From a virus (taxonomy: Duplodnaviria > Caudoviricetes), in the IMG/VR virus record IMGVR_UViG_3300044675_007236: a DNA stretch of 64,000 bases. One strand, 5' to 3'. Position numbers and translations under genes: made by a program. The notes beneath the pieces were generated by a model. It saw only the letters and a list, made by a program, of their open reading frames with translations. It did not search any database and was not told the DNA's origin. How positions within the stretch are numbered: the first letter of the stretch is position 1; each line of letters begins with the position of its first letter. Of this stretch, positions 5,720-56,949 are shown piece by piece.

Positions 5720-6126
5720 GCTACGACCTGTACTGTAAATGTGTCTATAAGTGCGTTATTTGCATTGTTACGTACTTCTACTGTTTGCGGACTTACCTTA
5801 GCCGTCAAGGTGCTGTAACAAGTAAACTTAACCCACTGACCAGCTGTTACTGCGAACGTGCTGCCAGGGCTGTCGGCTACCTGTATCCATGGCGGCGTTG
5901 TTGGTTGCCCGTTTGGGTTTAAAGTTGCTTCAGAAGCTGCTACTTGATAGAAAAGTTGAATATTGGACGGGCTTGTCAAGTTTACAACTTTAAGTGTTAC
6001 ACCGTATGTAAGTAATTTACTGGTGATAGTGCCGCTTGTTGTGCCTAAACTCCACTGTATAGCTTCCCAGTCTGGGTTAACAACGCTTGGTGGTTGTACG
6101 TTAAACAGACCAGCAAATGGTAACAT
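5716..6126 (-). CDS. beta-rich fibre-associated protein (~136 aa)
   Basis: ATG at 6126 overlaps the fibre stop (TAATG); Thr/Ser/Val-rich beta-strand pattern. Confidence 0.7.
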   Translation of the reverse strand: MLPFAGLFNVQPPSVVNPDWEAIQWSLGTTSGTITSKLLTYGVTLKVVNLTSPSNIQLFYQVAASEATLNPNGQPTTPPWIQVADSPGSTFAVTAGQWVKFTCYSTLTAKVSPQTVEVRNNANNALIDTFTVQVVA

Positions 6127-8270
6127 TATATTGTTGTATCTCCAGCTAGTACAAAGTTGTTTGCACTTCTTTGGATCAGAGACACGACTGCCCATCTACC
6201 TGCTGTTTTAGTGTGACTTTGTCTGTTGTTTATGGTTGTACCCGACGCATTAAAAGTAACTTGACCTGTACCTGACTGTATCACAGTAACCGTAAAACCA
6301 ACTGGTAAGCCTGTAGGTACCGTTATCGTTATAGCGTTACTGCATTCCAAGACTACACCGTTATCACCGGCTCCAAGTGTTCGCGATGCGTTAGCCTCGG
6401 TTACAATTATACCTGTACCTGTAACATACTTATTGGAAGTGATACCACCGGTGCTAAGCATATTAGTGCTAGCGTTGTAACTAAGAGCTGGCGACGTTGT
6501 ATCGATGTTAGGCGTTTGATTACTCCCGCCCGCCGCCACAAATACAACGTAAAACAAAGAATCTGCGTCTGTGGCTGTTGCGTTTATAGCTGTGCTAGGA
6601 CCCGTCGCACCGGTAGAGCCAGTTACTCCTGTGGCTCCTGTAGTCCCGGCAGCTCCGTTAGCACCTGTTGGTCCGGTAGCACCTACCGTCCCACTTATGC
6701 CTGTGGCACCTTGCGAACCTGTAGCCTGTAACGATAAGACAACTTGGTCTGACGCGGTGTAAGTTCCGTTTGTAACAATACTCTCTACACTAAAATCAAA
6801 ATAGGTTGCTTCTTCAGTTACAGCGGTAATTCGATACAAGCCAAAGTTAGTCACGTTGTTTATCAACCACGTCTTTATAATGTCGCTAGCTTTAAACGTG
6901 TCTAACCATGCCGTCATATCTATGTCATTGTAATTTGACTTTTCAACGTAAATATGCTCGACAGCATCCAATACTGCGCTATCAAAATAAACTTGACCGT
7001 GGGAAGTTAACGCCATTATCTTGGCAGATTCTATCTCAGTGTCTGCGTAGAAATAGCTGTCGTCACCTGTGTGTTTTAAAGGAAATACAGGGGCCTCTGG
7101 TGAAAGGTTGCTGTTAAACTCCCAGCTCATCAGAAAATCATTTTCGTCGGGTGTAGGCGGGCCGGACGGGCCGGGTGGTCCTGTTGGCCCTGTTGGGCCT
7201 GTTGGTCCCGAAGGCCCGGTTGAACCTTCGCAACAAGGCCCTTGTGGCCCAACGGCACCTTGCGGACCTGCAGGACCTATAGGTCCTTGTGGGCCTACGT
7301 CACCCTGAGGTCCTTGATAGCCTTGAGGTCCCCGATAGCCTTGAGGTCCCCGATAGCCTTGAGGTCCGCGGTATCCCTGCGGCCCGCGATAACCGTAAGG
7401 TCCACGGTATCCCTGCGGACCGCGGTACCCGGTTGCTCCCCGACCACCTAGCGGTCCTTGAGGCCCTGTTGGGCCTTGGTTACCGTCTGGGCCTGGATTG
7501 CCGTCTGGGCCTGGATTACCGTCTGGGCCTGGGTTGCCATCTGGGCCTGGATTACCGTCTGGACCGCTAGGTCCGGCTGGGCCTTGTGGTCCTTCTGGCC
7601 CGCTTGGTCCCGCGGGTCCGGTGGGTCCGGCTGGGCCTTGTGGTCCGTTTGGTCCTACTGGTCCTTGTGGTCCTTCTGGCCCAACGGGTCCTTCCGGTCC
7701 GTCAGGCCCTTGCGGTCCGGCTGGGCCTTGTGGTCCTTCCGGACCTTCTGGACCTTCGGGTCCTTGCGGCCCCTGTGGGCCTTCTGGTCCTGTTGGACCC
7801 TGTGGACCTTGTGGGCCTAACTGCGGGCTGGGTATTCCAAGATTTAAATCAATAGAGAACGTACAATCGCCAGATTTTGTTACGTCAAGCGAGGCAAACG
7901 GAGCTCCGCCGGGGCCTACGGTACTTACAGTGGCACTTCCGCTAATTTCCGGGCAAGGAAAAGCAATATCCAGCGTAAAGGTGTAATCGCAGCATGCACC
8001 TTTAGTTATTATGAGACTAGCGTTTTCTCCACCAATTGGCACTACGGTGGTATCAACATCGCCCGCACCTATTACAGGACAAATAGGATCGGGATCTAGC
8101 ATCGGAACCGGCAGCGACGGGCAATCGAAAATATCAGTCGGTGCCTGCGGTACCTGTGGATTAAGCAGCCAATTACCGCCAGGTATAGGAAAAATACAAG
8201 GCACATCGCATTTGATAACATCAAATACAGGTGACTGAGGTCCTTGTGGACACGGAGTCGTCGGTGCCAT
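6126..8270 (-). CDS. collagen-like tail fibre (714 aa)
   Basis: Cys/Pro-rich N-terminus, long G-X-Y repeat region, second GAT-type block, and a C-terminal fibre-tip-like beta domain ([27 protein letters not shown]). Confidence 0.85.
7155..7817 (-). repeat. coding 9/18-bp tandem repeats (collagen G-X-Y, ~73 triplets)
   Basis: Blocks of [12 protein letters not shown] and GYRGPQ repeats in frame within the fibre gene. Confidence 0.95.
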
Positions 8271-39886: not shown

Positions 39887-40612
39887 TTAAGGTCCTTGGT
39901 ATCGACTTTTTAATGAAATGTCGTTTTCACCAAGAAAACTGGATAGTGAAACAGCTTGCAGCGGTAGTGATTCTTCTCGCAACTCCCAGGTGTGCTCGTA
40001 AGCCCAGCTGACAGTGATCGGTACAACGTAGTTTTCAGTAGATTCTTCTAATTCCTGAATCGCACCAACTTCGGTCACATTAAACTGCCGTAAATCAAGT
40101 TTCTTCCGTATTATCGGCGAAAACTCAAGTAACTGGTTTTGTACCTCGGTTGCGAGCACTTCAGTAGAAGCCCCTGTTTGATGTATGCAAAAAAGCGTGT
40201 GCGAACCCACAAAATGTGTGGAATATCGCGTTATAGCACCCTTTTCGTTTTTGTAGGCGACCAATCCTTCACCCTGAATTTGATGGGCAAAACCCATAGC
40301 CAAATTTCGGAAAGAATTGCGTTTGATCATAATCGCAGGACGTTTTTCAACTATATCGCCCCGAAATCTATGAACAGTTTCGATCAATATACCGGAATCA
40401 GGTTGCTCTTTCCATAGATATTGTTTGAGCTCTGGCATCAATATGTTTTGAGAACTAGACCACTGACGTATAAGAAAATCTCTAAAGAAACCCGTTATAA
40501 GTATTGGCTGCCAATTGTTCTGACACAAGAAATCGAAATTAACCGTACTTTGCGTACCGTAGTTATCTTTAGACGGCTGAGGATCCGGCGTTGGGCACCA
40601 ATCAGTGGTCAT
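39887..40612 (-). CDS. tail terminator / tail completion protein
   Basis: RPAIMIKR, GSHTLFCI, YVVPITVSWAY; located between neck and sheath genes. Confidence 0.65.
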   Translation of the reverse strand: MTTDWCPTPDPQPSKDNYGTQSTVNFDFLCQNNWQPILITGFFRDFLIRQWSSSQNILMPELKQYLWKEQPDSGILIETVHRFRGDIVEKRPAIMIKRNSFRNLAMGFAHQIQGEGLVAYKNEKGAITRYSTHFVGSHTLFCIHQTGASTEVLATEVQNQLLEFSPIIRKKLDLRQFNVTEVGAIQELEESTENYVVPITVSWAYEHTWELREESLPLQAVSLSSFLGENDISLKSRYQGP

Positions 40613-40821
40613 TTACGTTTATCCATTTGTTGAATAACAAGTTCCGGATCGTAATCCCATTTTTTCATATTTAGCTTAGTAACAAACGGATTACTGCCTT
40701 TAGAATTAGTCTTTTCTTTTGCTTTTTCTGCTAAATGTGAAGCCTTGGCGTGCTCCTCGTTTTGAGGCAAACCTAGAGGATAATGCAAACCCGACGGAGC
40801 AAATCTAGGGATATGTGTCAT
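40609..40821 (-). CDS. small hypothetical protein
   Basis: ATG at 40821 (TGATG overlap); ~70 aa. Confidence 0.55.
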   Translation of the reverse strand: MTHIPRFAPSGLHYPLGLPQNEEHAKASHLAEKAKEKTNSKGSNPFVTKLNMKKWDYDPELVIQQMDKRK

Positions 40822-41744
40822 CAGCAACGCTCCTGCAACCAGGCGTCTTGCTGCGGAATAGGTATACGGTAAGCTACATCTGTAAACGGGGCTGGTCTAA
40901 GATTAACCTGCGCAATAATAGGAACACCCCGCATTTCATAAATATTTTGCGTCGCTTCAATGTAATACCTAATATCAGTTTTTCTTGAAACCCATACGTC
41001 TTGCTCGCTGATAATAGGCAACATAAGCATCCTGGCTCTGATTTGAATGTCTTGGACCGTTCCTCTAACAGCTTGGTCGTCGACGTTTAGCTTGCTGGCA
41101 CTTGGGGACAGATCAGCCCATACGCAAGCCAGCGGATAGTAATAACCGCACTGTTTGCCTGTACCCCAGCACTGGGGGCAGTACGGGTCGGTTATTTCCA
41201 TTGTCTGCGGATCAAGACAACGTGGGCAGTTTGCACCTGTCATTCTACGTTTTAGTAAGTAGCCGTCTTGCGAGGTGTATCCAAATCTAAGCTTTTCTTT
41301 GCGGGCGATTTCTCTAGCCAGCCGCCAGTCTCTAGGATCTAATATGCCAGTTTGAGAAGCCGGGTCTGAGAAATAAGTCTGACTCGGCGTTATTAACTTG
41401 ACTCTATAATATGTTGCAAGTGTTTTAGTAAAAGCTCGCTGTTGCGGGTCTAGTGCGTAGCAAGTGTTCTCTACAGCTAGGCCTACGTCTTGCCAATCGT
41501 CGGCATCTGGATTTCCTGTAGCTCCTACCTGCAATTGAAAAAGCCAAGGCTGCAAATCGTTAAATGAAGAAAGCAGCTGCCACATGACCCGAGTGCCGCC
41601 ACGCATCAGATAAGATACGTGTACCATGTCAAACACGTTTTCGCAGCTAGGTGGACAAGGTTTAGCTTCGCAAGATATGTAGCGGTTTTGCTTTACCTTG
41701 CTCGAGTTGTCCACTCCGGGTGAAGTACTTCCGTTTAACGTCAT
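40821..41744 (-). CDS. neck / head-closure protein with CxxC...CxxC insertion
   Basis: GYLLKRRMTGANCPRC...DPYCPQCWGTG...GYY; synteny after adaptor. Confidence 0.65.
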   Translation of the reverse strand: MTLNGSTSPGVDNSSKVKQNRYISCEAKPCPPSCENVFDMVHVSYLMRGGTRVMWQLLSSFNDLQPWLFQLQVGATGNPDADDWQDVGLAVENTCYALDPQQRAFTKTLATYYRVKLITPSQTYFSDPASQTGILDPRDWRLAREIARKEKLRFGYTSQDGYLLKRRMTGANCPRCLDPQTMEITDPYCPQCWGTGKQCGYYYPLACVWADLSPSASKLNVDDQAVRGTVQDIQIRARMLMLPIISEQDVWVSRKTDIRYYIEATQNIYEMRGVPIIAQVNLRPAPFTDVAYRIPIPQQDAWLQERC

Positions 41745-41751
41745 ACGTTAC

Positions 41752-42738
41752 CTAGTAAAAAAGACCGGAGTATGGTGAACCTAGCGAACCGCTAAAAGCT
41801 GCAATGTTAATCTCAATCTTCTTCGCCTTGACATTTTCTTGAAACATTTGCAGCATTCGACTGCTAGCTGCAATGTACTGTTGTTCTTTGTTTTTGTCGT
41901 CAATAGACATACCGCCAGCACTGTAAGCCAGCTGATTTCTTCGGTAGTGATTAGCTGCAATATCAAACAAATAAGCCTGAATGCCTTGCAACCAAAGTTC
42001 TCGAAACGGAAAATTCTTAGTTGTTAAAAGCGTATTTAGCGGAGGTGGAATCTCGTTCCAATACTGCAAGGGACGCATCACAGCCTGTATAATTTCCGCC
42101 GAATCAAACTCGACGTCATCAATGAGCATATTGTCGGCACCGCTGTTGTCTCGAACGGAAAGACGGATTTCCTCAATAGTAGGCGGGCCAACGTTTCTAA
42201 AATTCAAATCTGAATTTACACCGAAAAGACCGCGTCTGACAAAGGTGCAGCATTGATTGCTAAAAAGCATGCTACCGTCAGGTGCAAAAAACGACCACTC
42301 TTCCAGGTAAATTCCAGGAAATCTAACTATCGAGTCAGGCAGAATGTTTGCGCGTACGATACCCTCGGACATATCCAGCACTTCGGTATCTATCTGCACA
42401 ATTGGATCGTTGACAGGGTCGTATCCTGACAACTCTCGCATGCGAAGAACCACGCCGCAGCCTGGGTTCCCAACTGGATCAAAATCGCCTGAGCTCTGGC
42501 TTGTCGTGCTCGAGCAATTGCTCACACAATCTTGTAAATTAATCGGCTGGCCTTCTGGATTTTTGAAATTCCATATTAGCCTCGCGGCCTGGCCCATTTG
42601 AACTTCGTGGCATTGAAGCTTAGGTAGAACAGGACAACCGTCAACAACGGTTTGCCTTGGCTTGATAATATTCTGCTGTTCGCAGTCGGCACCTGGTAAT
42701 GGTACCGGCAACTCTACAGGTGTTCCCTCAAGTGGCAT
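41752..42738 (-). CDS. head-tail adaptor (neck protein 1) with N-terminal Ig-like extension
   Basis: IEEIRLSVRD...DVEFDSAEI...NQLAYSAGGMSID helical adaptor pattern. Confidence 0.65.
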   Translation of the reverse strand: MPLEGTPVELPVPLPGADCEQQNIIKPRQTVVDGCPVLPKLQCHEVQMGQAARLIWNFKNPEGQPINLQDCVSNCSSTTSQSSGDFDPVGNPGCGVVLRMRELSGYDPVNDPIVQIDTEVLDMSEGIVRANILPDSIVRFPGIYLEEWSFFAPDGSMLFSNQCCTFVRRGLFGVNSDLNFRNVGPPTIEEIRLSVRDNSGADNMLIDDVEFDSAEIIQAVMRPLQYWNEIPPPLNTLLTTKNFPFRELWLQGIQAYLFDIAANHYRRNQLAYSAGGMSIDDKNKEQQYIAASSRMLQMFQENVKAKKIEINIAAFSGSLGSPYSGLFY

Positions 42739-43369: not shown

Positions 43370-43397
43370 ATTATAGCCAAAGTAGCTATAAATAAGC
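43370..43397 (-). promoter_or_regulatory. putative promoter (TATAAT -10)
   Basis: Perfect TATAAT at 43370-43375 in the intergenic gap; weak -35. Confidence 0.4.
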
Positions 43398-43405
43398 GAC
43401 AGTAA

Positions 43406-44494
43406 CTAGACTTCGCCAAGCTTGTACCAACCTTCTTTGCTGATATAGACATTCATCACGTCCGAAAAGTATTTGTTGTATTTAGGTGCAATCTTTTCTA
43501 AAGCAAACTGTTCACCAAATTTACGACAATCTTCCGGTTTAATTTGATCAATAGTTTTGACAGCATTTACAAAATCGGCAAAAGTACGGCAGCGATAACC
43601 CGTTAAACCGTGAGGATTATTTTCCGTAAAAGCCCCCCAGTCCGTGGTGATTGTCGGGGTACCGGAAAGCAAGTTTTCTATTTGCACGCCGCCGAAAGGC
43701 TCAATATATTGGCTGGCTACAAAGCTAGCCTTTGCGTCTCGCATGAGCTTTTTTCGGGTTTCAACATCTGCGTAACCTACGTACTCTACGCACGACGGTA
43801 GTTTGTAGTTGTCGTCTTTTTGGCCTGCAATAACTAACTTTATACCTAGCTTTTCGGCAACTTGTATCGCAATATGTACACCTTTGCCTTCGTAAACACG
43901 CCCAAGATACAAGAAGTAGTCCTGCTTTTTGTCACTGTATTCGAACTCGGACAAATCGAAGTAGTTAGGAATAACTACCTCGTACCAATCCTGATTACAA
44001 GTTTTTACACCTTTAATTCCGCAGTAAGCGTGATAAATGGCGTAAGATTCGAAAACTTTCCATCTGGCCCAGTGACCATCGGCGTATCCTATGCCTGGTT
44101 CTACACATATTAAATCAGGATGAGCGTCGCAAACTGGTCGTACACCAGACCCCCAAAACGGTAGGATAAAGTCTCTTGGTTGTTTTCGTTTAGTTATTTC
44201 AGCAATAGCGCGGCTGTAAAAGGTTTGATACGCGTGATCGTTGACATCAAACTTAAAAAAATGCTTACGCCAATCGTGACTTCCATAGGCCTGAGCTAGA
44301 TCTGCGTTTGTTGTAACCGTAACGTGCTCGTTGCAGTCAAGCTGCGAATCTTCATGACCGTAATGAATGATGTGATGCCCGTGCATTCGCATCATCTTGG
44401 CAAACTTAACTACTTTTTGAGTATAGGCACACGCCACATAGTCTCGGTTAGAAACAGTGTGCGGTAGACCTAGTATGTGAAAACGAAAAGACAT
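43406..44494 (-). CDS. GT4-family glycosyltransferase (GT-B)
   Basis: Start [13 protein letters not shown] at 44494; [39 protein letters not shown] (EX7E motif). Confidence 0.9.
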
Positions 44495-44504
44495 AAAACA
44501 TCCT

Positions 44505-44972
44505 CTACAATAGCGCAGGTAAAATCGCTGTCTTTTTGCGTACGTCTTCGACCGTCGTCTCATTTGCCACACTCGCCGGGAACGATACTGGAGCAGCAGC
44601 ACTAGTCGGCTGCCCTGCGATCCTTGTGACGTTTGCATCTGTGTTTCTGTTCTCAATCGAAAATGTCCGAAGTATCGTTCTTGCCAGGTCTTTCCCATCG
44701 ACTATCCCTGCCGTGAATACGACGTCGTAGTCTTTACCGCCCTCATATACCGCATCGGAAGTGTCGATCACCAGTTCATGGAACCCAGCTTTCCCATCAT
44801 AATCTACGGCGGGTTGGGTTACTCCGGTAGTGAATTCTGTTGTCGAATCTTTGTAAATCGCGACTGTTGGATTTACTGTTGGGGTAGCAGGCAAAATAGC
44901 TTGACTGAACGTGTTGAATTTGACACGGATCTGTTGGCCTTTTTTGAAATCTCCAATGTATTTGCCTGACAT
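44505..44972 (-). CDS. hypothetical Ig-like structural protein
   Basis: 155 aa, beta-rich ([17 protein letters not shown]...[10 protein letters not shown]). Confidence 0.65.
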
Positions 44973-44974
44973 GG

Positions 44975-46009
44975 TTACCCTATCAAAATGTTATCGATCG
45001 GAGAGTATGAGCCACCGGCACCACCTGTTCCGTCATCTAAGCCGTCAATCACAACACCAATTTGTGGTAGAATTGTCGGAGTGTTAATCCAAGAGGTGCC
45101 GCTAGATCGGGTGAGCATGTGATCGGTAGCAATCGCAGTAGCGTAAGCCGCCACGGGAACTGTGGTGATATTGAACCTAGTTCCAGGAGGACCAGATGGA
45201 GCCCCTACGAGTCTGTACCATGTGTCTTTTTCTAGTACGACTGGAGAGGAAAAATTATATTGACTTACGACCGCACTTCTTTCAAAAAACTGATTAGAAC
45301 TTACCGTTAATCTTCGTATTGGTGTTCCGTTTGGGGCAGTTGAATCGGCATAAAGGCTGTATGTTATATTAACATCAGGGTCATGCGTGGACCAGAATCC
45401 GGGGATTCTAGCTGTGTGTAGTAGTCGGAATCGAAGACCTTCCTCTCCAGTACTGTATTGAATTGTCGTCGAGCCGACTCCATAAGCCACTCCTCCTGGG
45501 GCGATAGGCCAATATGTTCCGTCGGAATATCGCAGAGCAGCATAAGGTAATCTACCGGCAATACGTGAGTAAAGACCACCTGTACTAATTAGCGGGTAAT
45601 TTACTTGCATTTGACTTACAAGACTTGCCAAAGCAATTTGAACTGAAGTGCCTGAGTTGTGAGCCCATACTAGCCAAAGAAAATTGTCTGGCGTTACTGT
45701 AGCTCCTGAGGTCAATGTTGACTCAACGGACGTGTTGCTTGTCAACGTACCGGTGATTACGTTTGTGTTTGCCCCAAATAGTGTTCCGCTTGGGCCTCCA
45801 GATCCTACAGTCTCAAGTCTAATATCGATTGTTGGGGAGCCAACTACCGTTCCAGTCTGCCAGTTTATTCCATTAATTATTCCTTCTTTCGGAGGTTGAA
45901 AATTAAACGCAATTTTAGACAAAGGACCTAACGCAGCAGAGGATATTGTTCCTGGTGTCGTTGTCGCAAGATAATTAACTAGCATTCGGTTGCAGGTGAC
46001 GATTGTCAT
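44975..46009 (-). CDS. hypothetical beta-rich structural/fibre-associated protein
   Basis: 344 aa, Thr/Ser/Gly-rich; TAATG coupling. Confidence 0.7.
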   Translation of the reverse strand: MTIVTCNRMLVNYLATTTPGTISSAALGPLSKIAFNFQPPKEGIINGINWQTGTVVGSPTIDIRLETVGSGGPSGTLFGANTNVITGTLTSNTSVESTLTSGATVTPDNFLWLVWAHNSGTSVQIALASLVSQMQVNYPLISTGGLYSRIAGRLPYAALRYSDGTYWPIAPGGVAYGVGSTTIQYSTGEEGLRFRLLHTARIPGFWSTHDPDVNITYSLYADSTAPNGTPIRRLTVSSNQFFERSAVVSQYNFSSPVVLEKDTWYRLVGAPSGPPGTRFNITTVPVAAYATAIATDHMLTRSSGTSWINTPTILPQIGVVIDGLDDGTGGAGGSYSPIDNILIG

Positions 46010-46590
46010 TACAACTCCGGTTCCAGCCCGAGGCCGTTATTGTCTATGTACTCGGTCCATGCCTCACGATATGCTTGGACCCGATCCAGTGCTCGCTCGA
46101 TTCGCAGTTCACTCAATGCGACAAGTTTCATGTGGGCAACACAAGCTGTGATTTCTTCGAGGCTTGGGACTTCAATCTCGATTTGAAACTTTTCGATTCG
46201 CTCCTTGATTCGAGCTTGCTCCAACAGGCTGATGTTTCGCTTGACTTCGCGAGCAAGATGCCTAGCTCCTGGAACCAAGCCTACTTGGTCGAGCAAGTTG
46301 AACGTGTTTTGGATGTCAACATCGTTCAAGGGCATCCCAGAAGATAACTGCGAGATAGCCCAAGTTTCCCCTTGCTGCAAGAGAACGTCTTGCAGCCGTT
46401 TGCACCCACCCCTACCAAATCGCATTCCCGTCTCGGGAACCCAAACAGACGCTAGCCCCTTCCACGTAAAATCACCGGAGTTTTCAAATGGAATATCTTC
46501 GACCAGTAACGCATCCAAGACTTCTTGCGAAGTCTTGGATTCCCAACCGGGGACTAAACGAATTAATACTTTCAGTTCTTCGGGGGTCAA
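46009..46590 (-). CDS. hypothetical protein
   Basis: Likely TTG start at 46590 with GGAG SD (MTPEELKVLI...). Confidence 0.7.
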   Translation of the reverse strand: MTPEELKVLIRLVPGWESKTSQEVLDALLVEDIPFENSGDFTWKGLASVWVPETGMRFGRGGCKRLQDVLLQQGETWAISQLSSGMPLNDVDIQNTFNLLDQVGLVPGARHLAREVKRNISLLEQARIKERIEKFQIEIEVPSLEEITACVAHMKLVALSELRIERALDRVQAYREAWTEYIDNNGLGLEPEL

Positions 46591-46591
46591 T

Positions 46592-47035
46592 TTAAGTTCT
46601 CCAAAAACTAGGCTCATGCCAGGGCCTAAGAGAGGATTTCCAAGGCAACCCACCAAACCACCGCATATCCTGCTGTGTAAAGTTTAGGTGCGGGTCGCCC
46701 AAAACCTCGCTCATAACGTGCCCAGGCTGTTCCATGTGCCCACCACCCTTAACCAGCCAATGCCCAAACTCATGCACAATCGCAAGCACCATCTGGCTTT
46801 GGTTGATCCAAGTGTATGATGATTGAGCAAAGATGCGATTGCCTCTTTGCCACATCGGACTGCCTTGCTCATTGGTCAATAAAATCTGAAAATGCTGGCC
46901 TCGCTGGACTTGCACGAACTGTACGTCCCAGTACCGGGTGATCTTCGCAAAAGCAGGGAGTATGCTTTTGACTGACCAGTTGCCGGTCTGAGCGATAGGT
47001 CGCGTTGCAAAGTTCCAAAGGATTTTCCTAGCCAT
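46592..47035 (-). CDS. minimal metzincin-like zinc metallopeptidase
   Basis: AIVHEFGHWLVKGGGH and PGHVMSE Met-turn-like motif; ATG at 47035 with GGAG SD. Confidence 0.65.
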   Translation of the reverse strand: MARKILWNFATRPIAQTGNWSVKSILPAFAKITRYWDVQFVQVQRGQHFQILLTNEQGSPMWQRGNRIFAQSSYTWINQSQMVLAIVHEFGHWLVKGGGHMEQPGHVMSEVLGDPHLNFTQQDMRWFGGLPWKSSLRPWHEPSFWRT

Positions 47036-47047
47036 ATCAAACTCCAA

Positions 47048-48274
47048 TTATATTATAGTCTCAGTCACGCTTGTCAGCTGATTGGCACTATAAATAAAAG
47101 TTTTTCGGTAGACGCGACTAGGGCTGCCGTGCGTGTAATCTAATTGCGTAAGTAGCCCGGCACTATATGTAAATATTTTTGACGAACCGTCGGAGTAAGT
47201 TATAGTTGAAACGTTACCGTTGACGTCATAAGTAATCGCAGGTGCCGAGCCGATTATCTGATTATAACGAACCTGCCGCAACTCGGGTAGCGACAAAGTT
47301 TGAGACGCTGCAAACGATAAAAGACCTGAAACATTACCAGTAGCGCCCGTGGCACCTGCAACCCCAGTTGCACCTTGGCTTCCTGTAGCACCAGTTGCAC
47401 CCTGAACACCTTGGCTTCCTGTGGCACCTGTAGCACCCTGAACACCCTGGCTTCCTGTGGCACCTGTAGCACCCTGAACACCCTGGCTTCCCGTTGCACC
47501 TTGGCTTCCTGTGGCACCTGTAGCACCCTGAACACCCTGGCTTCCCGTTGCACCTTGGCTTCCTGTAGCACCAGTTGCACCCTGAACACCTTGGCTTCCT
47601 GTAGCACCAGTTGCACCCTGAACACCCTGGCTTCCCGTTGCGCCTTGGCTTCCTGTAGCACCAGTTGCACCCTGAACACCTTGACTACCTGTAGCCCCGG
47701 TTAGACCTTGGCTTCCTGTAGCACCTTGACTACCTGTAGCCCCGGTTAGACCTTGACTACCTGTAGCCCCGGTTAGACCTTGGCTTCCTGTAGCACCTTG
47801 ACTACCTGTAGCCCCGGTTAGACCTTGACTACCTGTAGCCCCGGTTAGACCTTGGCTTCCTGTGACACCAGTTGCACCCTGAACACCTTGGCTTCCCGTT
47901 GCACCTGTAGCACCCTGAACACCTTGGCTTCCCGTTGCACCTGTAGCCCCTGCTACACCCTGCGTACCCTGACTACCAGTTGCACCTTGGCTTCCTGTAG
48001 CCCCTGTAATACCGGTAGATCCTGTTATACCCTGACTACCAGTTGCACCAGTTGCACCCTGAACACCTTGGCTTCCTGTGGCACCTTGACTACCTGTAGC
48101 CCCGGTAGCACCGGTCAAACCCGTAGCTCCAGTCGCTCCGGCAGCATCTCCAATATAATCACGAACATCTTCGCCGTTAGTAAACGTAAGCAGCTGCCTA
48201 CCAAATGCATCAGTGGTTAACTCGTCAATTTTAGTTAACTGATCTGAATAAGGCTGTGGTAGATAGTTCGTCAT
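47048..48274 (-). CDS. collagen-like fibre (408 aa), Thr/Ser-rich
   Basis: ~89 G-X-Y triplets of [12 protein letters not shown]; C-terminal YD-like repeats ([17 protein letters not shown]...FTYSAGLLT). Confidence 0.85.
47336..48139 (-). repeat. coding tandem repeats (GATGSQ / GVQ collagen units)
   Basis: Near-identical 9-bp-multiple units in frame. Confidence 0.95.
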
Positions 48275-48280
48275 CTGACC

Positions 48281-49510
48281 TTAGATGTGTTGAAGCCCAG
48301 GGTGTCTTTGTCCTTTCAAAGCTACAAGCTCAAAACGTAAAAACTTGAATCCTTTATTTTTGTGCCATTCTGACGGATAAAGTTCGGTGCAGTTTATCTC
48401 TTGAAACCGACACCTAATGTTACCGTTAGCTCTTGCAAAGTCTTTTCTTGTATAAGGATACATGCTTGTTGCACTGAAATGCGATTTCCACTCAACATCG
48501 GCGTAACCCATACCCGAGTGCACTTCAGGTACTATGATAGTCAAATACCCCCCCGGAACCAAAGAGCAATATGCGGCGTTCATAAACTCGCGAACATGAA
48601 AACCTGACAGCTTCTGTAGTTCAGTATCTGCGACAATGTGACCGAAATTGTTTTCGCCAAATCCCTGTAAAAGGTGATCTTCAGCATTCCATCCGGATTT
48701 GAGTAATTTCGAAAAATCGAGTTCTTCTAACTTGTTTCGTTTTAACCACTCTTTGATCAATCGTTGTAGATAAATAACTCGAAAATTACGTGTAGCTTTG
48801 CTTATCTGATCTGCACGAGCATGTATTGTGTTGTTGTTAAAGAGCCGATAAAGATAATGACAACCACCAGTATGCGCAAAACTAGCACCGGTTAAATACG
48901 TTTTTATCATCAACTCCTGGTCGTCGCAAACGGACAAATCAGGGTTGTGCCCTCCCGCTGCAAAATAGACCGAACGTTCCCAACATCTAACGTGATCAGG
49001 GCAGTAATAAATTTCTGCCAGCGATCTAGGTGTAATGTCGAAACATCGACTGGCTTTTAAAGCTCTCCCGTAAATTTTTACAGCGTAGCTCTCCCAACCG
49101 TGTTGCGGTGACCAGTTAAACGGCAAAAATCTATCGTTCGCCGAATCCGGAGCAAATTTGAATACTGCGTTATCTGAATAAACAAAACCTGCTCCTTCTT
49201 TAAACCTACTCTGAATGCTAGCCAGCGTGTCCCCTGGGACAAGCAAATCGTCATGGTCTAGTTCGATAAAAGCATCACCACTAGCAGCTGTACAAAGCTT
49301 TCGCTTAATAGCTCCAATGTTGTAAAGTTCTCTGCCGCCTTCGATAATCTTTACTCTATTGTCCAATCTTACTGCTGTAGGAATTACCGTGTTTTTACCG
49401 TTAGGTAAAATAACCCACTCCCAGTCTTGTAGCGTTTGCAGCTTTAAAGAATTGTGAGCTTCCAATAAATAGTCTGGTGCGTGTGTGGGTGTAAATATGC
49501 TGAGCTTCAT
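48281..49510 (-). CDS. GT2-family glycosyltransferase fused to a methyltransferase-like C-terminal segment
   Basis: MKLSIFTPTH, GDAFIELDHDD, DDQELMIKTY; C-terminal EFMNAAYCSLVPGGYLTIIVP. Confidence 0.85.
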   Translation of the reverse strand: MKLSIFTPTHAPDYLLEAHNSLKLQTLQDWEWVILPNGKNTVIPTAVRLDNRVKIIEGGRELYNIGAIKRKLCTAASGDAFIELDHDDLLVPGDTLASIQSRFKEGAGFVYSDNAVFKFAPDSANDRFLPFNWSPQHGWESYAVKIYGRALKASRCFDITPRSLAEIYYCPDHVRCWERSVYFAAGGHNPDLSVCDDQELMIKTYLTGASFAHTGGCHYLYRLFNNNTIHARADQISKATRNFRVIYLQRLIKEWLKRNKLEELDFSKLLKSGWNAEDHLLQGFGENNFGHIVADTELQKLSGFHVREFMNAAYCSLVPGGYLTIIVPEVHSGMGYADVEWKSHFSATSMYPYTRKDFARANGNIRCRFQEINCTELYPSEWHKNKGFKFLRFELVALKGQRHPGLQHI

Positions 49511-49527: not shown

Positions 49528-49560
49528 AAAAAACGACCGGTTATTGTAACCGGTCGTTTT
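49528..49560 (-). terminator. intrinsic terminator (potentially bidirectional)
   Basis: AAACGACCGGTTA-CAA-TAACCGGTCGTTT perfect stem with U-tracts. Confidence 0.9.
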
Positions 49561-49585
49561 GTTCTGTCAGCAGGCCAGCTTACAA

Positions 49586-50167
49586 TTAAGTCACAGATGT
49601 CACAGTTTGTCCGCCCCACAGGTTCGGAATAACTAGCCACTTCGTACCATTTCCAACAACTCGGAAACTTCCGCCGACCTTCAAATTGCTCGAACTAAGT
49701 GCAACCGAATCGGCAGCAACGTCGTTCAGTATGACCATGATATCTGTTGTGACACAGGTGATAGTCATGTCCTGATTGGCTGCGTTATAGAAAGTAAATT
49801 CCAGGTGAGCCGTCGGTACAGTTGGCAATGTGAAAGTGATAGCCGCAGAACCAGAAGCAATAAAAACACGACCAGTGTCAGCAGCTGTAAGCACTCGGTT
49901 GGCAGTAACTGTTACAAGCTCTGAGGTAACTGGTGGCGTCTGTACCAGTGTCAAGTCGCCGCTGTCTACAGCGGCCTCAAACGCGGCCTGTTCTCTTGCA
50001 AGAACACCGCCACCCACACCTTGATTACGCCCCAAAGAACTTCGGACGTCGCCAAAGACAATAAAGTCTTCGTTAATTCCCAACTCGCGTCCGTGCGGCG
50101 GAAGAAACCCGAAAAACTTTACCTTGCCCGACGTGTTTTTTACCGTCGAATACAAAACGTTAGACAT
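49586..50167 (-). CDS. capsid-associated fibre/decoration protein
   Basis: 193 aa; C-terminal TANRVLTAADTG...AITFTLP module similar to the fibre tip at 6126-8270. Confidence 0.6.
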   Translation of the reverse strand: MSNVLYSTVKNTSGKVKFFGFLPPHGRELGINEDFIVFGDVRSSLGRNQGVGGGVLAREQAAFEAAVDSGDLTLVQTPPVTSELVTVTANRVLTAADTGRVFIASGSAAITFTLPTVPTAHLEFTFYNAANQDMTITCVTTDIMVILNDVAADSVALSSSNLKVGGSFRVVGNGTKWLVIPNLWGGQTVTSVT

Positions 50168-50942: not shown

Positions 50943-51887
50943 TTACTCGAAGTCGACTCGAGCGAGACCTGAAGTATGACCGATTGTTCCACCGAGCGAT
51001 TCGTAAGCGAAGAACTCGATGAAGTAAGCTTCACGACGGATGTACATCGTGGTGTCTTCAAGCATATAGCTCTTACCGATAAACTTAGGATCGGCAAAGT
51101 GATACATGGTACCGGTTGGAACCAGACCCTTCTTGATGGTGATGACCCACTTAACACCCATGCATTCGCTGAGCGTCCAGCCGTTACGCATGATTTCTTC
51201 AGACAAATCACCACCCATTTCGTTGCGTGTAAACTTCGCAACGTCTTTAATAGTGATGTTGTTAAGAAGAACACAGTGAACTTCAAGGTTCGACGGTGTG
51301 CTAGGCATAACCTTCAGGCTATCAAACAGCGTATCACGAGTGATACCGCCGGAGATAGTTCTGTACTGAACAACACCCGAGGTTGGGACGACGAGGTCAG
51401 GGCCAACAAGTGCAGTATTAACCGCGCTGAGGAACTTACCATCTTCTTCAGCCAACATGTCCTTAATAGCGTTGTCGCTAAGAACCTGACGAATGTCCAT
51501 GTACCAAGTTCGAAGTTCATCAACGTCTTTGGTGAACTTAGGTGTCGTAATCCGATCAAAGGTAACCTTGTAACGGTCGCCCTTGATGTAAAGGTTGGTA
51601 GGAAGCGTAGCGAAAGGAATCGAAACAGCCGCAGGGCTGTTTGGTTCTTTATCTACGATCTTAACCGGTTTATCCGTGTCAACCTGACGATCAAGATCGT
51701 CGTTGCTGATTGGAATAGGCGGCATGATGCGGCGAAAAAAACCATCTTCCCGCATTTTAGTGCGTGTGAAGTCGTTAACGGCGTCAACGGCTTGCTTGGT
51801 CAAAGAAGCGTCCGCGGAAGAAAGCTTTTCAAAAATCGCCTGGCTTGCCAGCAAGCTTTCTTCGCGAGTCATTTCAGCAGTAGTCAT
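50943..51887 (-). CDS. major capsid protein (HK97-fold expected)
   Basis: KMREDGFFRRIMPP, YKVTFDRITTPKFTKDVDEL...DIRQ, C-terminal FFAYESLGGTIGHTSGLARVDF; GGAGG SD; followed by a terminator. Confidence 0.85.
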   Translation of the reverse strand: MTTAEMTREESLLASQAIFEKLSSADASLTKQAVDAVNDFTRTKMREDGFFRRIMPPIPISNDDLDRQVDTDKPVKIVDKEPNSPAAVSIPFATLPTNLYIKGDRYKVTFDRITTPKFTKDVDELRTWYMDIRQVLSDNAIKDMLAEEDGKFLSAVNTALVGPDLVVPTSGVVQYRTISGGITRDTLFDSLKVMPSTPSNLEVHCVLLNNITIKDVAKFTRNEMGGDLSEEIMRNGWTLSECMGVKWVITIKKGLVPTGTMYHFADPKFIGKSYMLEDTTMYIRREAYFIEFFAYESLGGTIGHTSGLARVDFE

Positions 51888-54324: not shown

Positions 54325-56949
54325 TTACACGCTAAAAAGTTGATTCTGACAGACGGCAAGCCGTGCTGTCAACGGGAAGTTCGGATTACAAGCAGCTGAA
54401 CGCCAAAGGGCAGCCAGCTTGTACATTGCATAGTCTTTAGCTAACGCTTCGCCTTCTGTGTTGCATTCTGCGAGCTTCTCATAATGACAAATTTTAGGGG
54501 TTTGATAATTTCGACAACAGCCCAACAAGCTTCTCTTATAAACAGATTCTTTAGAAAAAGAGAAATCTTCTGAAAAAGAAGCAGCTAGTAGATTAGCATT
54601 TGCTGTAGCTATTTTATCAATTAACGCAGAAGGTGATCGCTCTATACGTAAAGGCAGCGTCTCATCGGATGCCATTTTGCTGTAAATAGCAGGCAAAACA
54701 GCTTGTGCAGTTTTAAGGTGTTCTTCGGTTTTGGTTAGTCTACTGTAATCAGCGAGACTAAGAAAAATACAACGATCTGCCATAGCAGCCAGTTGGCTAT
54801 CACAAGCAGCAGAGCCAAACGCTGCAAGTTTCTCTACAGGAAAAGGTTTTGTCAGTATGCCTACAAGCAAACTATCCGGTACGTTTGCAGCACCTTCCAT
54901 AGAGGCAAGGGCATAGCCGAGTCGGATTTGAGACGCGGTTTTCTCTGACCAAAACCCGTGTTGGCCGGACTGATAGAGGATTACATCAAGCGGCGCAGTA
55001 GAAGTGCTAGCCAGCTTAATATAATCCTGAAGTTCAAATACGCCGGAATCTGAAGCAGCTTTCGTGAAGTAATCGGCCTTAGCTCCGTAAGCAATACGAT
55101 CAGCCGGTCTAAACACACGTGAAATATCAAACCACGTTGGATCTGGATTATCGACATGAAGATGGTGTAAGTCGCCAGCTACTTTGACCAATCGAGTAAG
55201 ATTGTTTTTACAACCACCGGCTGCACACTTCTCGCTAGTGCAATACTCGTCGCGAGTTCTCGCTGCATGTTTGCAGAACGAGCAAATATCGTTAGGCACG
55301 CGGCAATTGTGGCTGACAAAACCGCCAAGACTGTAGGACTCGTCTTCCTCGACTTCGAAGTTATATGTTTCGACATCCGTTACGTCTCTACTTTCAATAT
55401 CAGCTATTCTGTAAGCGTAACGTTGGTCAGGACAAATCCGCATAGCTGCAGGTTTTTCTCGTAGCTGTTTTCTAGTTAACGTGTAGCTGGCGGCCTTCTG
55501 AGATCCTGAAGCCAACTGCCACAAATCTAAATGGCTAACATTTAACGTATATTCTATCCCGCTATTTTCGTAACCGCTATTTTCACAAAGTGCGTGATCT
55601 ATACGATAAATAGAAGTTGGAATGCCTACTGAGGCCAGCAAATCCCTGCCCTGTAGAACTAAATGCACGTTAGCGGAAGAAAAGTGCCCACCTTTGGCAT
55701 CAGTCCAACCATCGCCGTCCAGCCAAGCGCCTAAAAAAGCTAACTTTATTTCGGTAGCAGCGTTAAATATTTCTGGCGGTATGCGTTTATTTTTACAGCC
55801 TCGGCCAACATACTGTCTTAAAAACTCAGAAAATTCGGTGCTGCGAACGATAACAGCTAAAGCTGCGTTGCTATTCTTTTTAGGCTCAATACTGACGGTT
55901 ATGTCGGGGTAAAGAATTTCAACCAACCTAGGTAAACGTCTTGGAAGCGAATCTGTAAGATTGCAAGTAAACTCCGTACTACAGGCTTTTTCGCCGTTGT
56001 AGCTAAAACTACCTTCTGCCAAGTAATAACCTAATATAGCCGCAAGCGTCGGACAGCTCAAAGCAGCATAACCGTTAAAACGCGTTACAGGCTGATAAAA
56101 AAACCTGTCGCCTTTTTGCAAATGCTCCGCGTGAGTCCAGGCTGCAGGCTCGGCATCAAAAGCTTTTGTGTCTTTAAAATAACGTCTGGCTTTACCTTTA
56201 ACGCTACTAGCAGCACATGCAAATGTCTTTGCCAACATTGGGTGGTCGGCAGTTAACTCCAACGGTAAAGGCAATCCGTTGCATTTAAAAGTGTACGCTT
56301 TACCGGTATATCTACGTCGATTAGTACCAGTTACTCGACGCCAGCGGCCTTTGTGCGTCCAAACATACATACCTGTTTTAATTTCAGCGATGGATAGATA
56401 GCCCTGATCTCTGGTCAAAACAGGATAAGTCGGATCCAGTACACAAGCCATGCTGACCGGGAAATCCTCTCCTCGAGCAATCTTTTCTACCTCAGTATCC
56501 GCTACCAAACCACCGTTACGGTCGGCGGCAGCCTTAGTGGCATTCAAAGCACAGAGAAGTTCAACACGCCGCATATCATCGTTGTACGCTGAAGCTTTCA
56601 CGTGTCCATAAAACGGATCGCCACGTTCTGGCTTGTTTTTATGGTTTCGAAAAAACTTAGCAAACTTTACAAACGTATCGTGATACTTTTTGCAAGTAGC
56701 TTCTTTGAAAGCATCACCGTTGCGATTAGGCCCGTAAGCCTCGCTAGCTCCTAACGCAATTAAGTGAACAGGTATCTCGTCACTTGCAAACTTGTAATTG
56801 TCAATCTGCGGCAAAAAAGAATGACTAGCCGTCTTAAGAAAATCACGACGGTCATTGCCGATAAGCCCGCGGCTACCGATTTTAACAGGCACAACAATTT
56901 GCCTGTCGAACTCCCAACCTGACGGCGATACAAACTTGATATGAGCCAT
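54325..56949 (-). CDS. prohead (capsid maturation) serine protease precursor with intein
   Basis: NRNGDAF, FFRNH, PVSMA|CRVPNDICSFC protease motifs once the intein is removed (spliced ~494 aa). Confidence 0.8.
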   Translation of the reverse strand: MAHIKFVSPSGWEFDRQIVVPVKIGSRGLIGNDRRDFLKTASHSFLPQIDNYKFASDEIPVHLIALGASEAYGPNRNGDAFKEATCKKYHDTFVKFAKFFRNHKNKPERGDPFYGHVKASAYNDDMRRVELLCALNATKAAADRNGGLVADTEVEKIARGEDFPVSMACVLDPTYPVLTRDQGYLSIAEIKTGMYVWTHKGRWRRVTGTNRRRYTGKAYTFKCNGLPLPLELTADHPMLAKTFACAASSVKGKARRYFKDTKAFDAEPAAWTHAEHLQKGDRFFYQPVTRFNGYAALSCPTLAAILGYYLAEGSFSYNGEKACSTEFTCNLTDSLPRRLPRLVEILYPDITVSIEPKKNSNAALAVIVRSTEFSEFLRQYVGRGCKNKRIPPEIFNAATEIKLAFLGAWLDGDGWTDAKGGHFSSANVHLVLQGRDLLASVGIPTSIYRIDHALCENSGYENSGIEYTLNVSHLDLWQLASGSQKAASYTLTRKQLREKPAAMRICPDQRYAYRIADIESRDVTDVETYNFEVEEDESYSLGGFVSHNCRVPNDICSFCKHAARTRDEYCTSEKCAAGGCKNNLTRLVKVAGDLHHLHVDNPDPTWFDISRVFRPADRIAYGAKADYFTKAASDSGVFELQDYIKLASTSTAPLDVILYQSGQHGFWSEKTASQIRLGYALASMEGAANVPDSLLVGILTKPFPVEKLAAFGSAACDSQLAAMADRCIFLSLADYSRLTKTEEHLKTAQAVLPAIYSKMASDETLPLRIERSPSALIDKIATANANLLAASFSEDFSFSKESVYKRSLLGCCRNYQTPKICHYEKLAECNTEGEALAKDYAMYKLAALWRSAACNPNFPLTARLAVCQNQLFSV
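55306..56445 (-). mobile_element. intein with LAGLIDADG homing endonuclease (380 aa)
   Basis: Starts CVLDPTYPVLT; block B ELTADHPML; LGYYLAEG and LGAWLDGDG motifs; ends TYNFEVEEDESYSLGGFVSHN followed by Cys+1. Confidence 0.95.

Follow-up and report, generated by a model that had tools for sequence, protein, structure and literature searches.

A 64,000-nucleotide (nt) stretch of the tailed-virus record IMGVR_UViG_3300044675_007236, referred to here as the window and numbered over its whole length, carries at positions 43406-49510, with every gene on the minus strand, a module in which two glycosyltransferases (GTs) accompany a gene for a collagen-like fibre. On balance, we lean towards the view that this fibre is glycosylated by way of the first enzyme, designated GT2-X, and then by the second, a GT4 enzyme, and that the genes form a swappable virion-appendage module of a freshwater jumbo phage resembling Salmonella phage Arash. 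The gene content of the module, the domain folds of its proteins, the intact catalytic motifs of its enzymes and their genomic coupling to collagen-like genes are direct observations. The three genes on which this view turns are as follows.

48281-49510, minus strand: GT2-X, matching PF00535 over residues 9-117 (E 1.6e-6; 28.6 bits against a cut-off of 23.3)
47048-48274, minus strand: collagen-like fibre of 408 amino acids (aa), matching PF01391 (E 3.7e-44)
43406-44497, minus strand: GT4 of the GT-B fold, matching PF00534 (E 9e-16; 58.3 bits against a cut-off of 26.4) and phrog_3408 (E 3e-195)

The original prediction, made from the sequence without database searches, had placed a GT2 gene, a collagen fibre, accessory genes and a GT4 gene in this interval, and the models PF00535, PF01391 and PF00534 confirm both GTs and the collagen.

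The collagen-like fibre and the GT2-X enzyme

Residues 46-315 of the fibre form 90 uninterrupted G-X-Y triplets, chiefly GAT (41), GSQ (25), GVQ (10) and GLT (6). Ser or Thr is present in 77 of the 90, as had been foreseen in the statement that nearly every repeat contains one of them; Thr occupies the Y position in 51 and Gln in 36, and Pro and Lys are both absent. The protein is predicted from these repeats to form a trimeric, triple-helical collagen-like stalk. A 45-aa N-terminal domain is conserved in the clade, with 64-73% identity in the relatives L009 and L011, the C-termini of which are unrelated, while the last 94 aa of the window protein match the RHS repeat PF05593 (E 1e-5) and constitute an RHS/YD-repeat domain. 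The conserved N-terminus and unrelated C-termini thus conform to the usual build of a fibre, with a fixed anchor and an exchangeable tip. The collagens in this slot beside the head genes of the window, L009 and L011 all have Pro-poor repeats with Thr or Ser at Y. The other collagen gene of the window (6126-8270), which encodes a tail fibre, is Pro-rich (GPQ, GPE) with just a short GAT patch, and has a single GxT-GxQ hexad compared with 25 in the head-slot fibre. The two collagens of the window are of different types, and one glycan pathway serving both fibres is not supported. No match to a 2-oxoglutarate (2OG)-Fe(II) oxygenase was found in any gene of the module.

The GT2-X gene is separated from the collagen gene by 6 nt, and its start ATG at 49510 agrees with the starts of aligned relatives. 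Residues 1-260 adopt a GT-A fold (AlphaFold2 model; predicted local distance difference test score 89, predicted template-modelling score 0.89), the closest structural matches of which are the chondroitin polymerase K4CP (Z 21.4), WrtF (approximately 21) and SpsA (Z 20.1). TarS/TarP and RmlT are further among the best structural matches of the protein, and the scores to mucin GalNAc-transferases are lower, as are those to LH3/ColGalT1 (Z 11.8, reflecting generic GT-A likeness only). E88 and the DHDD motif (D90, H91, D92 and D93) are invariant across 15 homologues with 46-82% identity, and so are many further positions. A likeness to class I methyltransferases is seen at residues 253-405 (Z 11.4 to the putative methyltransferase 3cc8). 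The glycine-rich S-adenosylmethionine (SAM) motif I was sought at alignment columns 265-300, and no conserved G-x-G was found there; a bacterial homologue has a fuller C-terminal domain, with an LDLGG-like stretch and approximately 30 extra residues. As modelled, the C-terminal domain of GT2-X is a degenerate methyltransferase-like domain, and no match to a TPR domain was found in the protein. The family comprises more than 1000 full-length homologous proteins, with relatives in 424 viral contigs. No description of the family, or of its pairing with collagen-like genes, was found in the literature, and it appears to be undescribed.

Pairing of GT2-X with collagen-like genes

The pairing of GT2-X with collagen extends to bacterial genomes, where a collagen-like open reading frame (ORF) lies within 1.1 kb of GT2-X in 20 of 26 full-length homologues (29-38% identity). 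These pairs occur in both orientations, with the ORF upstream or convergent, and in at least six lineages, among them an isolate of Thiothrix eikelboomii (ATCC 49788), Thiothrix/Thiolinea metagenome-assembled genomes (MAGs), Betaproteobacteria, a Polyangiaceae MAG and three families of Actinomycetota. Among the six homologues with no such ORF are some on phage-like contigs and some whose loci are truncated by the contig end. Like the window fibre, the adjacent bacterial collagens are mostly Pro-free, carry Thr/Ser or Gln at Y and contain many GxT-GxQ hexads. In a Thiolinea MAG (L182, 5645-11019), a collagen gene, a 165-aa gene, GT2-X, a DUF6445 gene and a 179-aa gene form an island between rnhB and dnaE that adjoins lpxD, lpxA, lpxB and bamA, a setting that is not a prophage, and the collagen repeats of this island are of the form (GSTGSQ)n/(GTNGAQ)n. 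DUF6445, a separate gene in the Thiolinea island, is fused to GT2-TPR in T4-like phages.

The T4-like phages constitute the largest group of GT2-X loci. Their typical gene order comprises a laminin-G fibre, up to three collagen genes, two 2OG-Fe(II) oxygenases, GT2-TPR-DUF6445, GT2-X and gp13/gp14/gp15. One such locus (L026, 3537-13932) and about 30 similar ones carry three tandem collagens, both oxygenases, GT2-TPR-DUF6445 and GT2-X before gp13. By its gene content, this cassette resembles a complete set of collagen-maturation genes placed in the whisker position. In T4 the position just before gp13 is that of wac (fibritin), and the site of GT2-X and collagen in T4-like phages is thus the whisker slot.

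Over all viral GT2-X loci, a collagen ORF is present in 20 of 45 dereplicated groups, within 3.5 kb in 18 and within 500 nt in 7. The latter number exceeds that expected from random placement within the loci (permutation P 0.025, a value that addresses placement inside loci and not the base rate of collagen genes per locus). Pro triplets in collagens near GT2-X did not differ significantly with the presence of a 2OG oxygenase (mean 0.28 with, 0.19 without; P 0.21; n = 9 and 11). Co-occurrence of GTs with collagen genes had been suggested as a check on the original prediction; the bacterial and viral counts agree with it, and the relatives L010, L012 and L013, in which no collagen adjoins GT2-X, do not.

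Within the window's own clade, nine relatives were examined, and GT2-X is fixed in the head-side block of all nine. In L009, where it is 82% identical, the genes after it encode a 512-aa collagen, three unrelated small proteins, GT4 and a 207-aa protein that also follows GT4 in the window. L011/G003 instead carries a 3030-aa collagen gene, other small genes, a fusion of GT4 to a SAM methyltransferase, and a GT2-HtrL protein. L010, L012 and L013 have neither collagen nor GT4 beside GT2-X, with Pro-rich collagen genes elsewhere. Because the gene orders vary after GT2-X, the stretch from the collagen to the 207-aa gene is best described as a swappable insert and GT2-X as the fixed gene; its retention in relatives that have no neighbouring collagen also means that it is not simply the dedicated enzyme of this one fibre. 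A search of five whole clade contigs detected collagen proteins in all five. The three with no head-slot collagen encode Pro-rich GPQ collagens at a distance of approximately 38 kb, where the window has its tail-fibre collagen, and GT4 is found only in the two that have a head-slot collagen. Thus, the Thr/Ser-bearing head-slot collagen and GT4 occur together in the window, G001 and G003, and both are missing from G002, G004 and G005. Additionally, paralogues of GT2-X (33-36% identity) reside in the tail-fibre collagen module of L018, L022 and L023.

One further contig related to this clade was encountered in a bacterial bin. L173, a 79-kb contig binned with a Gemmataceae (Planctomycetes) MAG, encodes a GT2-X that is 65% identical to that of the window, with collagen genes absent from its vicinity. 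This contig probably comes from a phage of the window's clade that was drawn into the bin, and provides a weak hint about the host.

The GT4 enzyme

The GT4 start is an internal Met (MSFRF...) and not position 44698, and the translation contains the E-x7-E motif as EPFGGVQIE. Two cultured Synechococcus phages, ACG-2014f and S-CAM7, encode GTs with 72-73% identity to the enzyme; the ACG-2014f gene is two genes removed from one for a 930-aa collagen and has a 2OG oxygenase after it. Relatives occur in 246 viral contigs, and those in the 80 listed, from very different viruses, share 61-85% identity. The commonest neighbours are collagen genes, in 17 of 52 groups clustered at 90% identity and 8 of 33 at 80%, in all cases within 3.5 kb, and a prolyl-hydroxylase-like oxygenase, in 16 of the 52. 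In other lineages, GT4 is accompanied by sugar epimerases or further GTs. Because GT4 co-varies with the head-slot collagen in the clade, its role as the second-step enzyme of the module is plausible, with a weaker case than that for GT2-X.

Two contigs labelled GVMAG (giant-virus bins; L124 and L133) also encode GT4 homologues, with 63-65% identity, and in L124 a collagen-like ORF is 108 nt away. In the G003 fusion (L172, 3114-4757), which lies ahead of the GT2-HtrL gene, the SAM methyltransferase forms the C-terminal part behind GT4 and retains an intact glycine-rich motif, and in ACG-2014f a methyltransferase-like gene precedes GT4. Together, these two arrangements suggest methylated sugars.

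A count of four genes and five GT domains around the two collagen fibres of the window had also been proposed. Of these, the GT2, the GT4 and a GT9 domain of the gene at 2771-4765 are recognized by models, while the C-terminal half of 2771-4765 and the 204-aa protein at 2154-2768 have no GT match among PDB sequences or PHROGs.

Proposed mechanism and competing explanations

Flanked by the head genes on one side and a further block of virion genes on the other, the module would be a swappable appendage module. Its fibre would comprise the clade-conserved N-terminal anchor, a Pro-free G-x-Thr/G-Ser-Gln stalk and the RHS/YD end domain, which probably bears a mobile distal cassette of helical, lectin-like and 155-aa proteins. 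In the host cytoplasm, the soluble GT-A enzyme GT2-X would place the first sugar on Thr/Ser residues of the stalk, GT4, likewise soluble, would add a further sugar, and the glycosylated fibre would subsequently be mounted on the particle. No transmembrane segments are predicted in the module proteins, all of which are predicted to be soluble, and this fits cytoplasmic modification before assembly. Which residues accept the sugars, which donors are used, how the steps are ordered and where the fibre sits are all inferred; by gene order, the fibre would be positioned at the head or neck.

Glycosylation of the fibre is the best supported explanation because GT2-X and collagen are paired in independent settings and because SgtA and BclA3 of C. 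difficile set a precedent. Several points weigh against it. The argument is drawn wholly from gene neighbourhood and comparative genomics, and the GT-A fold of GT2-X is closest to polysaccharide and teichoic-acid transferases, not to protein O-transferases in particular. In L010, L012 and L013, a full-length GT2-X (65% identical) directly precedes the homologue of the gene at 41752-42738. The collagens beside GT2-X in L004 and L005 have Gln at nearly every Y, and that of L004 has no Ser or Thr at all, so Thr is not a universal acceptor. For GT4, just the 8 of 33 groups noted above are near a collagen gene, one viral lineage places the gene between DNA polymerase and RecA/UvsX genes, and the nearest solved relatives, the cyanobacterial α-1,2-glucosyltransferase 7fg9, which acts on sucrose, and the BH4 glucosyltransferases, use small-molecule acceptors. 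Nor is a neck identity supported for the three genes downstream of the module, for which hhalign profile-profile comparison with the T4-like gp13, gp14 and gp15 families returned probabilities below 1%. The central proposal of phage-encoded fibre glycosylation therefore survives in part: the GT2-X/collagen pairing and the co-variation of GT4 favour it, and the retention of GT2-X in genomes with no adjacent collagen and the mixed contexts of GT4 do not.

The fixed position of GT2-X could instead reflect an action on another conserved virion protein, be it capsid, decoration or head-tail joining protein, with the adjacency to collagen arising from a shared variable slot. Such a role would account for the presence of GT2-X in all nine clade relatives, including the three that have no collagen or GT4 beside it, and for its location directly before post-head genes in two unrelated phage groups (gp13 in T4-likes; the 41752-42738 homologue here). 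It would also resemble the glycosylation of capsid and tail-tube proteins in mycobacteriophages. We nevertheless consider it unlikely, as bacterial homologues in non-phage islands pair with collagen where phage structural genes are absent, the 33-36% identical paralogues of L018, L022 and L023 sit in a tail-fibre collagen module, and collagen proteins are encoded in each of the five clade genomes checked. The usual proposal for GTs in phage fibre regions is modification of the host envelope polysaccharide (lipopolysaccharide (LPS), capsule or a teichoic-acid-like polymer), by which both enzymes would block superinfection or keep progeny from sticking to debris. The best structural matches of GT2-X, namely the polysaccharide, teichoic-acid and O-antigen transferases K4CP, WrtF, TarS/TarP and RmlT, agree with this proposal, as do the source annotations of its homologues (‘cell wall biosynthesis’, ‘O-antigen biosynthesis’), and modification of host LPS has been proposed for the GTs of pelagimyophages (PMC7029224). 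It is nonetheless improbable here, given the lack of predicted membrane segments, the absence of sugar-nucleotide synthesis, flippase and polymerase genes from the module, and the placement of the genes within a virion-gene operon behind a terminator; the repeated and specific pairing with collagen, in a bacterial island as well, would be left unexplained.

Glycosylation of hypermodified bases in phage DNA by one or both enzymes, as a defence against restriction, is a third alternative, and we regard it as very improbable. In its favour, a 7fg9-like GT-B enzyme has been assigned to DNA glycosylation on 5-hydroxycytosine in Rhizobium phage RL38J1 (PMC13326640), 7fg9 is also the best solved relative of GT4, and GT4 lies between DNA polymerase and RecA/UvsX in one lineage and often near a 2OG-Fe(II) oxygenase. 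Yet a tblastn search with GT4 of 50,697 phage records (E 1e-5) returned only cyanophages and two fecal phages, and not RL38J1. The neighbouring oxygenases are prolyl-hydroxylase-like (PF13640), with PF12851 (TET/JBP) not among the matches, the module contains no base-hydroxylating or hydroxymethylating enzyme, and GT2-X pairs with collagen genes in bacteria.

Genomic setting and accessory genes

The remaining features of the module and its surroundings are listed below in the direction of transcription.

50943-51887, minus strand: major capsid protein (MCP), which shares approximately 30% identity with its counterpart in Salmonella phage Arash and a more distant similarity with the Bacillus phage G capsid protein
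49586-50167, minus strand: 193-aa head-side gene, directly upstream of the hairpin
49530-49560, minus strand: intrinsic-terminator-like hairpin with a 14-bp stem, the loop TTACAAT and a T-run, at the boundary of the 193-aa gene and GT2-X
46592-47035, minus strand: candidate mini-matrixin-like zinc protease of 147 aa, with an HEFGH...H motif
46009-46617, minus strand: cassette gene 1, approximately 200 aa and mostly helical, with no Pfam, PHROG or NCBIfam match
44975-46009, minus strand: cassette gene 2, a 344-aa DUF4082/lectin-like protein (Atlas features 0.97 to viral DUF4082/lectin-like clusters)
44505-44972, minus strand: cassette gene 3, 155 aa, with no family match; a short form of the 419-aa protein of L216
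42747-43370, minus strand: 207-aa beta-rich protein with a weak CarboxypepD_reg match only

Transcription thus proceeds from the MCP through three small head-side genes and the hairpin to GT2-X, the collagen and the 147-aa HExxH protein, followed by the genes for the approximately 200-aa, 344-aa and 155-aa proteins, GT4, the 207-aa protein and homologues of Arash gp233, gp234 and gp236. The latter three are virion proteins of Arash, and the stretch between its capsid gene and gp233 encodes virion proteins verified by mass spectrometry, one of 2548 aa. No match in Pfam or PHROGs was found for the three genes downstream of the module (41752-42738, 40821-41744 and 39887-40612), nor for the 942-aa and 183-aa proteins beyond them. 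The placement of the module between head and neck genes therefore stands as far as the MCP upstream and the Arash virion-protein homologues downstream are concerned; the neck assignment, in light of the hhalign result, does not. The 207-aa protein has a homologue after GT4 in L009 (84% identical), is gone from L010, L012 and L013, and is replaced in G003 by the GT2-HtrL protein; in the closest relative, the gene is present or absent together with the module.

Two of the head-side proteins have features of their own. By eye, a similar short beta-rich motif occurs in the 193-aa protein and in the tail-fibre collagen (6126-8270), there within the C-terminal domain, and the 193-aa gene is shortened or missing in relatives with no head-slot collagen. 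An 874-aa head-module protein (ORF 54325-56949) contains an insertion of approximately 380 aa (55306-56445, minus strand) that is not present in its 492-529-aa relatives. The insertion begins with Cys, ends in His-Asn followed by Cys and encloses a LAGLIDADG domain, and on this basis looks like a canonical intein with a homing endonuclease.

The terminator anticipated before the module was confirmed as the strong hairpin at 49530-49560, which five relatives (L009-L013) keep with an unchanged loop on altered stems. The hairpin may have a role beyond termination. The loop TTACAAT resembles a -10 sequence, and the stem bases vary among relatives. Outside the hairpin, the loop motif GGTTACAAT is not found again on the window's coding strand, and it was thus ruled out as a general promoter motif here. 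A promoter-like gap had likewise been proposed after GT4, but this gap is just 35 nt long (43371-43405) and a promoter scan detected no promoter-like site within it; across the region, such sites are no more frequent than in shuffled sequences. Metatranscriptome contigs from four lake samples, with sequences identical to that of the window, span the head genes without interruption and the module in short pieces that touch most of its genes, a pattern that cannot rank expression and may include carry-over of DNA. RNA-library contigs from three lake runs stop at 49566-49575, at the hairpin, which is a weak hint of attenuation.

The accessory genes do not encode sugar enzymes or other parts of a glycan pathway, and are instead read as a matrixin-like protease and a mobile distal-appendage cassette. 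The 147-aa protein has weak but agreeing matches to the catalytic domain of MMP-8 (E 0.019), to PF00413 (E 0.016; 15.6 bits against a cut-off of 24) and, by Atlas features (0.94), to Peptidase_M10 clusters, with all signals below threshold. A fold of the collagenase family beside a collagen would be a curious arrangement. In its motif HEFGHWLVKGGGH, the third His is two residues late relative to HExxHxxGxxH, and pattern matching found no relatives of the gene in viral contigs. As listed, this ORF and the next overlap by 65 nt (46592-46656), and the likely start of the latter, ATG 46617, reduces the overlap to 26 nt.

Homologues of cassette gene 1 (37-90% identity) lie upstream of homologues of the 155-aa protein (w155) in about 20 other viral contigs, where the two bracket a variable middle gene and no collagen gene is present. 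Single-sequence folding of the approximately 200-aa product of gene 1 was unusable (predicted local distance difference test score 42). Homologues of the 155-aa protein (60-86% identity) occur in 25 viral contigs, and those of the 344-aa protein in L002 (70% identical) and in L206 and L207 (43-44%). In the siphovirus-like L216, the cassette follows a stand-alone 123-aa homologue of the RHS/YD end domain of the fibre and precedes genes that are tail tube-, chaperone- and tape measure-like by position. The middle gene there encodes a 460-aa beta-helix protein, which has in common with the 344-aa protein of the window the C-terminal peptide SYSPIDNILIG. The RHS/YD domain would thereby serve as a docking platform for the distal cassette. 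The accessory genes of L009, G003 and ACG-2014f have no detectable similarity to those of the window.

Significance and comparison with known systems

A broader proposal, which we advance tentatively as a possibility short of expectation, is that GT2-X represents an undescribed and widespread glycosylation system for Pro-free G-x-Thr/G-x-Gln collagen, carried as a small mobile cassette by bacterial chromosomes (Thiothrix, Betaproteobacteria, Myxococcota, Actinomycetota) and by hundreds of phages, T4-like and jumbo phages among them, and decorating whisker-like fibres of the phage neck or head. Alongside the 2OG oxygenases, GT2-TPR-DUF6445, GT4 and methyltransferases, it would amount to a prokaryotic equivalent of collagen maturation in animals. 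If GT2-X is indeed directed to collagen, sugar-coated fibres would be common in environmental phages, given its occurrence in 424 viral contigs, with a bearing on host recognition, adhesion to mucus and particles, and resistance to proteases and grazers. The proposal would then also explain many phage GTs and many prolyl-hydroxylase-like genes, whose role in phages has been called cryptic (PMC9301287). Cultured carriers are available in Thiothrix eikelboomii ATCC 49788 for GT2-X and in the Synechococcus phages S-CAM7 and ACG-2014f for GT4. A soluble enzyme that glycosylates simple G-x-T repeats could additionally serve as a tool for the production of defined glyco-collagen materials.

Glycosylated collagen-like filaments are known from bacterial spores, and glycosylation of virions from a few mycobacteriophages and giant viruses. 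BclA of B. anthracis is a trimeric, GxT-rich collagen-like stalk at the particle surface with O-linked sugars on the Thr of its repeats, a C1q/TNF-like C-terminal domain, and rhamnose-anthrose glycans supplied by a separate operon. In contrast, the window fibre ends in an RHS/YD domain, and sugar-synthesis genes are absent from its module. GTs encoded by mycobacteriophages reportedly modify the phages’ own virion proteins, the targets being capsid and tail-tube subunits (Freeman et al., 2023; mentioned in PMC11256854). In both cases the GT genes lie within or beside structural genes, although the candidate target here is a collagen-like fibre. T4 fibritin (wac) is a trimeric coiled coil with a foldon that forms the collar and whiskers and is encoded upstream of gp13/gp14; it is not known to carry glycans. 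In T4-like phages, collagen genes and GT2-X are likewise found just upstream of gp13/gp14, whereas the genes downstream in the window were not equated with gp13/14/15 by hhalign.

In Mimivirus, L230 is associated with the collagen-like protein L71, and in animals LH3/ColGalT1 act in the glycosylation of hydroxylysine (reviewed in PMC4691112). The present module shares with Mimivirus a virus-encoded collagen-like protein and candidate modifying enzymes, to which the T4-like loci add two 2OG oxygenases; unlike the L230 type, the window stalk has no Lys or Pro and the module has no oxygenase match. The closest parallel in description is SgtA of C. difficile, which transfers O-GlcNAc onto Thr, and also Ser, of the collagen repeats of BclA3, is encoded immediately upstream of bclA3 and combines a GT-A domain with a non-catalytic C-terminal domain (PMC7157674). 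The C-terminal domain is a TPR domain in SgtA and methyltransferase-like in GT2-X, and the GPT repeats of BclA3 belong to a spore coat protein, whereas the Pro-free GAT/GSQ repeats of the window belong to a phage fibre. Like SgtA, GT2-X is predicted to be soluble, joins an N-terminal GT-A domain of approximately 260 aa to a non-catalytic C-terminal domain and is encoded directly upstream of a collagen with Thr at Y, a likeness of GT-A fold and gene arrangement.

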